A stretch of 64,000 bases of DNA from an uncultured Eubacteriales bacterium (lineage in GTDB: Bacteria > Bacillota > Clostridia > Christensenellales > CAG-138). Of this stretch, positions 2,064 to 63,811 are shown in pieces (the stretch's first letter is position 1; each line of letters opens with the position of its first letter). The notes beneath the pieces were generated by a model that was given only the letters and a program-made list of their open reading frames with translations, had not been told where the DNA came from and made no database searches. The stretch lies in assembly GCA_902801845.1 (NCBI GenBank), contig CADCJW010000001.1:16376-80375 (forward strand), in the 5' to 3' direction. The position numbers and the translations under genes were made by a program.

Positions 2064-2164
2064 TGGGGATGTAGGGACTCGAATTCGCGCCTGCGGGCTT
2101 GGTCGGGATGCGGCTCTGGAGCGCTACCGGCGCTCCATTCACTACCGCATCCGTTCGAGTCCCT
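2064..2164 (-). repeat. tRNA-Val-derived palindromic module: 20-nt sense copy of the tRNA 3' segment plus inverted arm and nested hairpins
   Basis: 2064..2083 is identical to 2219..2238 (tRNA-Val T-loop to discriminator). An 11-bp stem pairs 2073-2083 with 2154-2164. Inner helices are GGATGCGG/CCGCATCC and GGAGCGC/GCGCTCC. It does not fold as a cloverleaf. Confidence 0.6.
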
Positions 2165-38794: not shown

Positions 38795-39043
38795 AAATAT
38801 GGGCTGTGAGAAAGAGGAGTACACTGGATTTCCTCTCAGAGAGGCGCTCGACGTGCTGCAAGGGCGCTGTGGAAGATCGGGTGGAAGGTCGCTTTTTAGC
38901 CCTGCGACGCGAGAGCCGGAAGGCGCGTAGTGTTGCACGCAGACGCTGCGTTATGGCTATGAGGGAAACGGGGGAGACCCTGTTTAACAAAGGTGGTACC
39001 GCGAGCGCCCGCTTCGTCCTTTGACGAAGGCGGGCGATTTGTT
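38795..39043 (+). promoter_or_regulatory. T-box riboswitch leader (tRNA-Val-sensing expected) with terminator/antiterminator
   Basis: Stem I elements GAGAAAGAGGAGTA and CAGAGAG. T-box sequence AACAAAGGTGGTACCGCG at 38986..39003. Terminator CGCCCGCTTCGTC-CTTTG-ACGAAGGCGGGCG plus ATTTGTT at 39006..39043. valS lies directly downstream. Confidence 0.88.
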
Positions 39044-42471: not shown

Positions 42472-42473
42472 AC

Positions 42474-42507
42474 AAAAAACAGAGTCCATCCGGACTCTGT
42501 TTTTTGT
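42474..42507 (+). terminator. intrinsic terminator of the tRNA operon
   Basis: ACAGAGTCC-ATCC-GGACTCTGT followed by TTTTTGTT. Confidence 0.85.
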
Positions 42508-42517
42508 TGCATGGAAT

Positions 42518-42567
42518 GGAACAGGACTTGAAGGGCGCAGGCGCGAATCAAGTCCTGTTTCCCGCAC
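42518..42567 (+). repeat. tRNA-Leu-derived palindromic module (minimal form): inverted arm, 16-nt loop, 20-nt sense copy of the tRNA 3' segment
   Basis: 42548..42567 is identical to 42450..42469 (T-loop to discriminator plus 1). A 12-bp stem pairs 42520-42531 with 42548-42559. The loop AGGGCGCAGGCGCGAA contains the motif shared with the Val module. Confidence 0.6.
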
Positions 42568-42595: not shown

Positions 42596-42940
42596 ATGAA
42601 CATAGGCATCGACTATTGGTGCAAAGTCGTTTATGAGGTCGGAACACCATTTGCAATCATCGCGTTTTGTTTGCATGAGGGCAATTTTCACATCATGGAG
42701 CTGCTTGTTAGACCCGAAATGCGTGGCAGAGGATATGGTACGTTGCTGCTTCGCGAGCTCCTTTCTAATGGAAAATTAATCATTGGTCATAAGATCGAAA
42801 AAGCCACTGCGATCGTTTTTTCGAACAATCGAGCGTCACGGAAGACTTTTGAAAAGGTTGGATTTACATCCGATGCTACGAACGGCCAGGATGACATAAA
42901 GTATCAGTATTTTTTGCAGCAAAAAGCAGAGTCGATGTGA
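42596..42940 (+). CDS. GNAT-family N-acetyltransferase, short and probably N-terminally truncated
   Basis: ELLVRPEMRGRGYGTLLLRELL (motif A, RxxGxG) and FEKVGF, but only about 35 aa precede motif A. No obvious RBS. The region is visibly AT-richer than its flanks. Confidence 0.6.
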   Translation: MNIGIDYWCKVVYEVGTPFAIIAFCLHEGNFHIMELLVRPEMRGRGYGTLLLRELLSNGKLIIGHKIEKATAIVFSNNRASRKTFEKVGFTSDATNGQDDIKYQYFLQQKAESM

Positions 42941-61606: not shown

Positions 61607-61682
61607 GGGGCATTAGCGCAGTTGGTAGCGCGCCACAATGGCATTGTGGAGGCCAGGAGTTCGACTCTCCTATGCTCCACCA
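61607..61682 (+). tRNA. tRNA-Ala (GGC), CCA encoded
   Basis: GGGGCATTAGCGCAGTTGGTAGCGCGCCACAATGGCATTGTGG... with the G3:U70 pair. Anticodon loop ATGGCAT. Confidence 0.9.
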
Positions 61683-61683
61683 C

Positions 61684-61717
61684 AAACAAAACACCACCAT
61701 TCGGTGGTGTTTTGTTT
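61684..61717 (+). terminator. intrinsic terminator of tRNA-Ala
   Basis: AAACAAAACACCACC-ATTC-GGTGGTGTTTTGTTT. Confidence 0.85.
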
Positions 61718-61729
61718 ATATAAAAAGAT

Positions 61730-61810
61730 GGAGAGTCGAAGTGGATATGGTAGTAAATTGGTCTCATTTCGCGAGCCCGCGGGCGAGTGTTCGACTCTCC
61801 TATGCTTCCA
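61730..61810 (+). repeat. tRNA-Ala-derived palindromic module: inverted arm, 49-nt loop, sense copy of the tRNA 3' segment
   Basis: 61789..61806 is identical to 61659..61676 (T-loop into the acceptor 3' strand), followed by T+CCA. An 11-bp stem pairs 61730-61740 with 61790-61800. The loop carries GGATATGGTAGTAAATTGG and GCCCGCGGGCGAGTG, similar to the Val module. Confidence 0.6.
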
Positions 61811-61846: not shown

Positions 61847-62536
61847 ATGGGAGATGAGCCCTTGGAAACCTACCGAAATCCATTCCACGCCAGCCACTTA
61901 TATCTTCGATTGACGGAGGAAGAGGCTGACGCCCTCTCCCCCGCCTGCTTCGCCAAGCTGTTTGAACAGTATGGTCTACCCTTGCAGGTCATGGCCTATT
62001 CCGATGCCATGCGGACCATCTCCTTGCTTCAGCGCTCCGGTTTCGAGCTGAAACGCAGGTGCTATGAGGTTCAAGTCAGCTCATCCGATCTACTTGTACA
62101 TGTATCCAAGGGCATCCCACCGCTATCACTTGCGAAAAAGGGCTCCTCCGCCTACTTTGCCTGCGCAGAGCTGCTGTATCACTACCATCGGGACACCCAT
62201 GCTGCTATTAACCCCTTGACCGTGTCCTTGCCAGAGTTCATGGAAGCTCTTCCGGCTGAAGTACTCTATGATGGCCCATCCGATCGACCGACCTCTGCCG
62301 CTTTTATCGAAGGGAACGAGATCGCCTATCTATGCTCCTTTGATCCAGCCGGATTCCCTGCCTTCGCCCGGTCTTTGCTCGCCGAGCTATTCGACCGCTA
62401 CGATCAAATCGAGTTTGAAGCGGACGACACCGATTGGGCGGCCACGGCGGTCAAGGACATGTTTTTGATAAAGATCGACCGTAGCTTCGACACCTATGTG
62501 TACTTGAACCAGCCAAGTAGGTATGATAAACTATAA
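61847..62536 (+). CDS. hypothetical protein, possibly a degenerate GNAT-like fold
   Basis: Long ORF with host-like composition. Start uncertain (ATG at 61847 or 61802; the track start 61787 is a GTG inside the tRNA copy). The pattern IEGNEIAYLCSF..ARSLLAELF..IEFEADDTDWAATAVKDMF looks GNAT-like but lacks the RxxGxG motif. Confidence 0.45.
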   Translation: MGDEPLETYRNPFHASHLYLRLTEEEADALSPACFAKLFEQYGLPLQVMAYSDAMRTISLLQRSGFELKRRCYEVQVSSSDLLVHVSKGIPPLSLAKKGSSAYFACAELLYHYHRDTHAAINPLTVSLPEFMEALPAEVLYDGPSDRPTSAAFIEGNEIAYLCSFDPAGFPAFARSLLAELFDRYDQIEFEADDTDWAATAVKDMFLIKIDRSFDTYVYLNQPSRYDKL

Positions 62537-63103: not shown

Positions 63104-63811
63104 TCAGGCGTCTTCCAGGAATTTAAGGAGCATGGTGGCGGAAAGATGAGCTGCATGGCGCTCGAAGGCGGCATAGGATTCCGAAGCGGAGCCGTCCGCC
63201 AGATCGGAGATGGCCCGGATCACCAGGAAGGGCACGTAGGCCGCCTGAGCCACCTGGGCGATGGCCCCGCCCTCCATCTCGCAGGCCAGGGCGCCATAGG
63301 TCTCGTAAAGGCGCTTCTTGGTCTCCTGATCGGCCACAAAGGTATCGCCGGTGCAGATGCGCCCCCGATGGATGGCGCTCTCCCCCGCTATGGCTCGGGC
63401 AACGGCTTCAAACCGGTCCAGAAGGTCCTGGTCGGCGGTGAACAGTGTGGGCTTGTCCTTAGGCCCGTCCAGGGTCAGGCAGCCGTCCACGCAGCCCAGG
63501 GCGGCCATGCGAAAGTCGTGCTGGACCAGGTCCGTGCTCAGCACCATATCCCCCAGCTTCAGCTCCGGCCCAACGCCTCCGGCCACGCCGGTATTGATGA
63601 GATAGTCCGGCTTGGAACGGTCGATGAGGATCTGCGCGCAGCGAGCAGCGTTCACCTTGCCGATGCCGCACTTGGCGAGGATCACGTCATGGCTGCCGAT
63701 CCGCCCCTGATAGAAGGTGAGCCCGTACAGCGGATTGGTCCGACAGTAGTCCATCTGTCCCCGGATCATCTGTATCTCCGAATCCATGGCGCCGATGATG
63801 CCGTATGTCAT
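63104..63811 (-). CDS. mtnN: 5'-methylthioadenosine/S-adenosylhomocysteine nucleosidase
   Basis: GIIGAMDSE, KCGIGKVNAA, INTGVAGG and CEMEGGAIAQV. Start at MTYGIIG after GAGGTG. Confidence 0.9.
   Translation of the reverse strand: MTYGIIGAMDSEIQMIRGQMDYCRTNPLYGLTFYQGRIGSHDVILAKCGIGKVNAARCAQILIDRSKPDYLINTGVAGGVGPELKLGDMVLSTDLVQHDFRMAALGCVDGCLTLDGPKDKPTLFTADQDLLDRFEAVARAIAGESAIHRGRICTGDTFVADQETKKRLYETYGALACEMEGGAIAQVAQAAYVPFLVIRAISDLADGSASESYAAFERHAAHLSATMLLKFLEDA

Follow-up and report, generated by a model that had tools for sequence, protein, structure and literature searches.

The 64,000-nt stretch of DNA analysed here (the window) carries on its plus strand a tRNA-Ala(GGC) gene at 61607..61682 (ARAGORN; Rfam tRNA, 64.7 bits), which is followed on the same strand by an intrinsic terminator, a short spacer and a module flanked by copies of tRNA-Ala sequence. 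The terminator (61684..61717), identified from the sequence and by a terminator scan of both strands, is a bidirectional hairpin formed by a 15-bp perfect palindrome that includes the A and T tracts, with the loop ATTC. After a 12-nt spacer, ATATAAAAAGAT (61718..61729), delimited by alignment with the unit behind the tRNA-Gln gene of the same genome, comes the 5' arm GGAGAGTCGAA (X', 61730..61740), the reverse complement of the tRNA-Ala T-loop and 4 nt of the T-stem 3' strand. The remnant of a conserved family core (61742..61787), placed by a covariance model and by alignment with an intact ortholog, then leads to the 3' arm, which is part of a direct copy (X2, 61789..61810) of tRNA-Ala positions 53/54-70. 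The source of this repeat is X1, the part of tRNA-Ala from the T-loop to CCA (61659/60-61682). All of these features lie on the plus strand, and the arms enclose an interior of 49 nt.

A preliminary description of this segment had proposed an outer stem built from a copy of the tRNA 3' part around inner motifs shared with a module behind tRNA-Val, an architecture that holds across relatives. GGAGAGTCGAA (61730-40) and TTCGACTCTCC (61790-800) are exact reverse complements and form the 11-bp stem that had been reported, and GTTCGACTCTCCTATGCT at 61789-806 is, as also stated, identical over 18 nt to tRNA-Ala 61659-76. The copied span takes in the final base of the T-stem 5' strand, the T-loop, the T-stem 3' strand and part of the acceptor 3' strand; beyond these 18 nt X2 is mutated, with the single T before CCA that had been noted as an insertion. 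Within the window the 17-mer TTCGACTCTCCTATGCT has exactly two occurrences (61660-76 and 61790-806), compared with a mean of 0.06 matches in dinucleotide shuffles, none of which (0/100) reached two. The module is no tRNA gene or pseudogene, given that ARAGORN and Rfam call solely 61607-61682; its tRNA content consists of the stretch from the T-loop to the acceptor 3' strand and the inverted T-loop with part of the T-stem 3' strand.

Modules of this kind stand at all three tRNA unit ends in the window, and a fourth, behind tRNA-Gln, lies just past the window end; alignment shows a near-identical spacer ahead of the Gln module, and the Ala and Gln units have the spacer TATAAAAAGAT in common. The module behind tRNA-Val(CAC), on the minus strand at 2064..2163, is intact (X' 2163-2154, core 2153-2086, X2 2083-2064). 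The module behind tRNA-Leu(CAG), the last gene of a 7-tRNA cluster, was located at 42521..42567 on the plus strand by sequence comparison and through its ortholog L015; it has X' ACAGGACTTGAA and X2 TCAAGTCCTGTTTCCCGCAC around a core reduced to GGGCGCAGGCGCGAA (the P3 region), and L015 holds the full core. Two of the four copies in this genome, Ala and Leu, are broken.

The inner motifs that the preliminary description had matched between the Ala and Val modules are GGATATGGTAGTAAAT (61743-58) with GGATGCGGTAGTGAAT (2137-52, minus strand) and GCCCGCGGGCG (61775-85) with GCCCGCAGGCG (2088-98, minus strand). Taken singly, each of these short motifs is no rarer within the window than chance would have it. 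Their combination is not a chance one, because a covariance model of 91 relatives ranks Val first (79.7 bits, E 8e-18) and Ala second (61742-61787; 15.9 bits, E about 0.04) over all window positions on both strands. Homology of the Ala core is secured by an intact ortholog at the same site: in a related species the PBP - tRNA-Ala locus (L119; PBP 85% identical) carries an intact unit followed in tandem by a second, degenerate one. The Ala segment is therefore the third member of the family, as had been claimed, but an internal deletion had been overlooked. Aligned with L119, the window copy has a deletion of ~22 nt that takes the 3' half of the main hairpin, so that the P2a hairpin, the 3' strand of a GA/K-turn-like loop and part of P2 are missing; in the covariance alignment, 3 nt stand for 23 model positions (P2a). 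The P2 5' strand, the 5' strand of the loop (both within GGATATGGTAGTAAAT, 61743-58) and the P3 hairpin GCC-CGCG-GGC (61775-84) are kept. Folded as RNA, the Ala segment is not significantly better than shuffles (z = -1.6, versus z = -5.8 for Val). Because about 22 nt have been lost and the score is 15.9 bits against 60-90 bits for intact members, the Ala copy is, as judged from its sequence, a dead, internally deleted relic; with its P2a hairpin gone and its 3' repeat mutated, it is most likely inert.

For family members in general, the arms were defined (model R1) as an inverted and a direct copy of the T-loop/T-stem of an adjacent same-strand tRNA, 40-90 nt behind it, and the core as P2, the GA loop GGUAGUGAAU/AGAGCC, P2a and the P3 hairpin GCC-CGCA-GGC. 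The Ala module has such arms, with its 11-bp stem and 18-nt direct copy beyond the terminator and X' 47 nt past the tRNA end.

The same-strand ORF behind the Ala module (224 aa) does have its longest frame from a GTG in the tRNA copy (61787), as the preliminary description had it, and gene callers on identical metagenome contigs start it at ATG 61862. The proposed tie between module and ORF did not hold up. The ORF has no match in a Pfam search and is missing at L119, where a flavodoxin gene directly follows the modules; on contig L002 the ORF has a longer, different 5' part that meets the window sequence at 61917. At the ortholog L015 no counterpart was found of the GNAT gene that follows the Leu module, and the gene adjoining the Val module is convergent. 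Since the ORF and the GNAT gene are not conserved and the Val neighbour is convergent, the ORFs are, on sequence comparison, accessory insertions typical of tRNA neighbourhoods and not module partners. All-against-all clustering of 905 flanking ORFs gave no recurrent family but generic ABC transporters and 3 integrase-like ORFs, and no transposase, integrase or reverse transcriptase recurred beside the modules; a linked protein gene was discarded as a candidate, given that no downstream family recurs over the ~120 scanned loci (L007-L134). The transcript start at TATATAAAAAG, put forward as a point to check, also found no support: this stretch falls short of the sigma-70 consensus, none of which was found between terminator and module, and the tRNA-Gln module has a similar spacer (TATAAAAAGAT). 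A promoter upstream of the modules was accordingly dropped. One reading, which takes up the co-transcription raised in the preliminary description, has the module serve the downstream same-strand ORF as a regulatory leader or as a tRNA-like or T-box-like sensor, and same-strand ORFs do follow the Ala and Leu modules; the absence of the one ORF at L119 and of the other at L015, the convergent Val neighbour, the want of any recurrent downstream gene family and the absence of an Rfam T-box or riboswitch match make such a role highly improbable.

Species-representative genomes were scanned with a gapped motif (GGTAGTRAAT...GCCCGCRGGCG) derived from the Val and Ala copies; the scan returned at least 119 loci, and the covariance model gave 124 matches. 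The hosts are nearly all Oscillospiraceae, Acutalibacteraceae and Christensenellales-type or unclassified Clostridia metagenome-assembled genomes from rumen and gut, and other phyla yielded a handful of chance motif matches. The preliminary description had allowed for absence from relatives and lack of enrichment; we find an intact module at L119 and a strongly enriched family. Nine viral contigs bear the motif, chiefly in a form nested in REP-like repeats, and a phage origin of the family was ruled out on these numbers.

The consensus, from an alignment of 91 distinct cores (core ~68 nt; module ~70 bases), comprises P2 (5-8 bp), an asymmetric internal loop GG-UAGUGAAU / AGAG-CC that is invariant in a set for which the scan pattern itself fixed GGTAGTRAAT, P2a (8-9 bp, short loop), a junction strand that is mostly UGACCGA, and P3 (GCC-CGCA-GGC), whose outer pairs are tandem G.A/A.G or else C-G/C-G. 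In the specified structure 89.9% of stem cells are paired. The covariation score is 0.289, compared with 0.076 in column shuffles (reached in 0/500) and with 0.02-0.04 after the partners had been shifted by 1-3 columns; P2a shows both-sided changes in 7 of its 8 pairs, and RNAalifold predicted P2, P2a and P3 independently. The U.G wobble that closes the internal loop is invariant, and G.U outnumbers A.C by 13:2 in the variable stems, which identifies the structured strand as the tRNA-sense strand. A selected single-strand fold forms in that strand.

A K-turn combines a stem of 3 bp with a 3-nt bulge and tandem G.A pairs, as in the U4 snRNA 5' stem-loop. We take the internal loop of the family to be a K-turn-like GA motif of this layout; we infer this from its sequence, which fits the K-turn pattern and is invariant in the family, but part of which (GGTAGTRAAT) the search pattern had fixed in advance. 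Like K-turn RNAs (U4 snRNA, box C/D, T-box, SAM-I), it has the layout GGU-AGU-GA...GA-GCC, with the invariant U.G closing the family's stem. It differs from them in an extra unpaired A after the GA pairs, and its sequence could also make sheared G.A pairs in single-stranded DNA. The wobble and G.A features suit RNA.

At the gathering score, no Rfam 15 family but tRNA was matched in the window and 16 loci, and a permissive scan near the intact Val module returned noise alone at E up to 10. Across the window and the same 16 loci, no module matched an Rfam ribozyme, T-box or riboswitch (including hammerhead, HDV-like, twister, pistol and hatchet). Several resemblances were considered and rejected. 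A hammerhead, suggested by CUGA(CC)GA / CTGATGAGG-like strings, has no Rfam match, the J2/3 strand differs among subtypes, and the CTGATGAGG strings are part of REP-like host repeats. HDV-like/theta, twister, pistol and hatchet ribozymes have no Rfam matches either and call for another helix order, and the likeness to the FMN riboswitch, 5S rRNA loop E or the hairpin-ribozyme substrate comes from common strings in variable stems, again with no Rfam match. No account of an element of this kind turned up in full-text literature searching; a catalogue that lists microbiome RNA motifs by the thousand may include the family but does not discuss it (PMC8040213). On these searches the family is uncatalogued, and it is widespread in gut and rumen Clostridia.

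At about 45 loci the core lies 40-90 nt past a same-strand tRNA or past tmRNA. A same-strand tRNA end is found at most 100 nt upstream of the core at 34 loci (usually 60-70 nt), representing 19 anticodon types, and at 3 further loci the module follows the tmRNA gene; some modules follow partial tRNA 3' fragments of the kind found at the far end of genomic islands. The arms follow the local tRNA: on average the 5' arm matches its reverse-complemented 3' part over 11.0 nt, versus 5.8 nt for tRNAs with a different T-arm, and the 3' flank copies it over 16.9 nt versus 5.2 nt. The direct copy starts within the T-loop (positions 54-59) and, in at least 8 loci having two unrelated terminators, ends exactly at CCA; repeat length ranges from 11 to 24 nt across loci, and at a few loci (L015 and L080) the inverted copy runs on through the acceptor strand to TGG. 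Within 230 nt, 44 of the 70 terminal tRNAs in all fetched loci have an inverted arm, and those lacking it have a plain terminator. The position and orientation of the module relative to the tRNA terminator are very uniform, and orientation tracks the tRNA and not replication, because GC skew is positive across the window and yet the Val module is on the minus strand (Ala and Leu are on the plus strand). The non-palindromic T-loops of Val, Ala and Leu show the 5' arm to be genuinely inverted, not copied a second time in direct orientation; a plain duplication of a palindromic T-loop as the target site was rejected on this ground.

Tandem arrays occur in many loci (L029, L038, L119, L045, L127 and L037) as repeats of a unit of ~144 nt that consists of X-CCA, terminator, spacer, X' and core, and L041 has at least 5 units without terminators. 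Orthologous tRNA-Val loci, found through the adjoining aldo/keto reductase (77-86% protein identity), have 1, 3 (subtypes a-b-a) and 2 modules, compared with 1 in the window, and their stems differ through compensatory changes. At tRNA-Leu(GAG) a filled and an empty site (L078 and L026), with flanks about 95% identical, differ by a single 145-nt block made up of 21 nt from C56 to CCA, a terminator, a spacer, X' and the core; the empty site's own terminator is found in the filled site behind the second X. Gain and loss of units involve ~145-nt blocks that have the 21-nt C56-to-CCA repeat at their boundaries.

The X' of the L078 block (ATCGGACTTGAA) fits a CCGAT T-stem, as in the tRNA at L070, and not the local CCCGT, which is why it pairs over just 9 bp; the tRNA 3' end at L078 is of the recipient type despite this foreign X'. 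The terminator in the block is 93% identical to the one behind the tRNA-Leu(CAG) module of a sister genome, and the two tRNA-Leu 3' ends have CAAGTCC and CGCACCA in common. From these sequences, recombination or template switching at shared motifs looks to have carried the block from one tRNA end to another. A hairpin-capped break or inverted triplication at the terminator was abandoned as a general origin, given that the terminators at L078 differ and its X' is foreign. Within a genome, one core subtype stands behind different tRNAs; in SIG637, for example, the tRNA-Leu and tRNA-Arg modules are of one core subtype and have different arms and terminators.

About one third of the family matches have no tRNA arms. 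Ahead of the core these copies have a GCGNAGC mini-hairpin (loop GAA in 44, GCA in 5, GGA in 3 and GTA in 2), and they sit within REP-like palindromic repeats in which core-bearing and core-less repeats are adjacent. DNA makes a far stabler GCGNAGC mini-hairpin than RNA does, with melting at ~82 C for the DNA form GCGAAAGCT and at 39 C for r(GCGAAAGC) (PMC13037366). At L032, two adjoining tRNA-Leu(CAA) 5' fragments differ by the clean insertion of an element of ~88 nt into the loop of a 4-bp hairpin, and target duplication is absent. The core also lies antisense in a pseudo-tRNA fragment far from tRNA ends. Left flanks vary (ACGT, GGGG or tRNA-derived).

We regard it as secure that the feature is real, that it belongs by homology to a large family whose single-strand fold has been selected, that this family is tied to the 3' ends of tRNA and tmRNA genes, that the units are dynamic and that the Ala copy has decayed. 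As to what the family is, we give roughly even odds (about 0.5) to a non-autonomous, essentially selfish, mobile or recombining structured repeat at tRNA/tmRNA 3' ends. An intact unit consists of a terminator, a short spacer, the X' arm and the ~68-nt core (P2, GA/K-turn-like loop, P2a and P3), set between two direct X copies (tRNA T-loop to CCA); on the tRNA-sense strand, pairing between X' and the downstream X closes a three-way junction. Movement of units among tRNA ends may rest on recombination or template switching at the T-loop and CCA-end motifs that the compared tRNAs share; X' would be re-fitted to the local tRNA after a move, which we suggest could happen by template switching inside the quasi-palindrome, and arrays would grow and shrink by unequal exchange between direct repeats. 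The conserved fold may be read by a putative trans-acting factor during propagation, and it would be kept since just intact copies would propagate. Several observations sit uneasily with a mobile repeat. No transposase, integrase or reverse transcriptase recurs beside the modules, so that we name no enzyme; a 21-nt repeat ending at CCA matches no characterised transposition chemistry; and spread by homology alone leaves the conserved fold unexplained. The retention of the tRNA-Val module across species whose reductases are 77-86% identical, with compensatory stems, could reflect host-level selection, and the uniform way in which modules are placed and oriented behind tRNA terminators is what a cis-acting RNA would show.

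A cis-acting RNA element of tRNA/tmRNA 3' trailers with a host function, in which X'-core-X in transcripts that run past the tRNA terminator would adopt a three-way junction containing a K-turn-like loop, is possible, if rather unlikely. Such an element could bind a protein, block exonucleases, direct processing or act as a backup terminator, and pairing of X' with the downstream X would spare the tRNA from annealing to X'. The orientation, always that of the tRNA and independent of replication (positive GC skew with Val on the minus strand), the fixed distance behind the terminator, the near-universal occurrence at this genome's tRNA unit ends and the persistence at orthologous tRNA-Val loci are all in its favour, as are the covariation, U.G wobble and tandem G.A pairs, which suit RNA. 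With an own promoter absent, transcripts would come from read-through, and units at many loci each close with a terminator of their own. A host function is harder to reconcile with the two broken copies among the four of this genome, with differences in presence and copy number among close relatives, with cores in REP-like repeats and antisense in a pseudo-tRNA fragment far from tRNA ends, and with class-2 copies that bear GCGNAGC mini-hairpins, much stabler as DNA than as RNA (PMC13037366).

Tyrosine-integrase elements that target the tRNA T-loop invite comparison as well, with the units as their remnants or miniatures, the X copies as attL/attR and the integrases encoded elsewhere. The terminator would then be borne by the element, and X'-core would be the arm next to attR, perhaps a folded attP-like site as in CTXphi attP or integron attC. 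The likeness to attL/attR extends to the direct repeat from T-loop to CCA, the tRNA and tmRNA targets, the tandem accretion, and inserted DNA that comes with a terminator and makes the tRNA 3' end whole again. For T-loop-class integrases, the identity block that Williams reportedly described in 2002 is this T-loop-to-CCA span. The loci often have islands and partial tRNA copies, and integrase-like ORFs lie near 3 of them. We nevertheless consider this origin improbable: direct repeats are present, but an integrase is neither inside the unit nor recurrent in the flanks (905-ORF clustering), nor was a linked one found nearby, and the unit, about 145 nt and geneless, has an inverted target copy (X') and a covarying single-strand fold. 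Covarying stems with constant loops are the opposite of what a double-stranded protein-binding arm would show. A single core subtype serves many different tRNAs, the tRNA 3' end at L078 is recipient-type although its X' is foreign, and cores also occur away from any att-like repeat. In the one mini-island analysed (L067), the repeat is 45 nt long, begins within the anticodon stem and does not enclose the module, being located upstream. Finally, core and X' could together form a small guide-bearing mobile element, inserted by a trans-acting enzyme at tRNA/tmRNA 3' ends, an idea we hold to be speculative and quite doubtful. The 10-12 nt arm complementary to T-loop and T-stem, placed beside a conserved scaffold, would pick the target by pairing as single-stranded DNA or RNA, and the enzyme would insert the unit, duplicating the T-loop-to-CCA segment. 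In the young L078 insertion the arm is foreign and pairs with the recipient over just 9 bp, and the site looks as it would if a carried-in guide had found a related target. If true, about 100 nt would make up an insertion system that is guided by nucleic acid and can be re-targeted.

Among interspersed repeats, REP/REPIN/BIME, ERIC, Correia and bcr1 (Bacillus cereus) are likewise short, non-coding, multi-copy hairpins at the 3' ends of transcription units, and REP/MITE-like repeats also show presence/absence polymorphism and some compensatory changes; the family core is itself found nested in REP-like palindromes. In contrast to such repeats, the family has a closing stem copied from the adjoining tRNA, no constant terminal repeat, a preference for tRNA/tmRNA ends and a 21-nt T-loop-to-CCA repeat. 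A non-autonomous DDE-type MITE, which would have constant terminal inverted repeats and a short target-site duplication of one length, was rejected, given that the arms vary by locus, the repeat is 11-24 nt of tRNA and the L032 insertion has no duplication. CTXphi attP(+), integron attC and the PATEs of IS200/IS605 share with the family a strand-specific hairpin, conserved unpaired bases and variable stems. The CTXphi attP hairpin, two inverted target-like sequences with a spacer between, can be likened to it, and insertion of IS200/IS605 derivatives involves neither terminal inverted repeats nor target duplication, like that of the element at L032. The family differs in having no linked phage, cassette or TnpA gene and in its long direct repeat at tRNA ends. 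For a PATE in particular, the hairpins, strand specificity and duplication-free L032 are compatible; the variable left flanks are incompatible with a PATE, which inserts 3' of a fixed tetra- or pentanucleotide, and TnpA is not linked. The family is a variant on known kinds, structured interspersed repeats and direct repeats at tRNA ends, and what is unusual is a closing stem rebuilt from the adjoining tRNA.

The Ala copy (61730-61810) is of value because it points to the family and shows that copies decay. In annotating such genomes, many tandem terminators and repeats called 'partial tRNA' are explained by these units. If our reading is true, a widespread group of gut and rumen Clostridia carries a structured element that databases do not list behind most tRNA and tmRNA genes. 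This raises the questions of how a geneless element of ~100 nt finds tRNA 3' ends and duplicates exactly the segment from T-loop to CCA, of whether its conserved GA/K-turn-like fold is read as RNA or as single-stranded DNA, and of what effect it may have on tRNA 3'-end formation, on termination or on tRNA genes as landing sites for genomic islands.

In the same genome, tRNA-Gln(CTG) is likewise followed by a module, the fourth, approximately 3.3 kb past the end of the window, on a contig that reaches beyond it (L002, 5515-5690, minus strand). With 62 bits in the covariance model built from 91 module cores, it is mostly intact, it carries GGTAGGGAAT and, in P3, a GUGA loop as variants, and it has the spacer TATAAAAAGAT in common with the Ala unit. 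Within the window, the covariance model also gave a weak match at 63427-63505 on the plus strand (11.9 bits, E 0.4), which falls in a nucleosidase gene region and is most likely noise. A T-box leader is present at 38797-39024 on the plus strand, scoring 95 bits (gathering score, 93), and is unrelated to the modules.

In the comparison loci, module cores are also found among other repeats. C-GNA-G mini-hairpins are abundant in REP-like palindromic repeats such as GGCTTCCCCTTGAGGGGAAGCTGTCAGCGAAGCTGACTGATGAGG (L085, 2600-4250; also L064 and L132), and at these three loci repeats with and without a module core adjoin one another, often as convergent pairs. Upstream of the real tRNA-Leu(CAA) gene, repeated 5' fragments of this tRNA, spanning acceptor through anticodon loop, occur at L032 (3150-3370), L020 and L072, and one copy is split by an antisense module core without a target duplication. 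At another locus, L067 (region from -1560 to +200, counted from the core in module orientation), the module lies directly downstream of a 1.4-kb mini-island whose sole content is one integrase-like ORF. The mini-island is bounded on one side by tRNA-Lys and on the other by a direct repeat of 45 nt beginning in the anticodon stem, and the sequence 3' of the module's tRNA copy is similar to the mini-island's own left arm.

The window tRNA terminators, at 61684-61717 (Ala), 2176-2212 (Val) and 42472-42507 (Leu), are perfect palindromes of 15-16 bp, with the A and T tracts as part of the symmetry, to which ACCA/TGGT is added at Val. Given this symmetry, all three are predicted to be bidirectional. 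Between the convergent reductase gene of the Val locus and the module there is no further terminator.

Directly 3' of the Leu module is a small GNAT acetyltransferase gene (42599-42940, plus strand; Pfam PF00583, E 9e-10), for which there is no counterpart at the orthologous tRNA-Leu(CAG) locus (L015). The Ala module is followed on the plus strand by a 224-aa ORF (61862-62536) that has no Pfam match and is missing at the orthologous tRNA-Ala locus of a related species (L119, 3900-4160 compared). In contig L002 (1-262), the 5' part is longer and different, and it meets the sequence of the window at 61917. In all likelihood the ORF is an accessory gene that has been truncated at its 5' end, with a rearrangement breakpoint adjoining the module.
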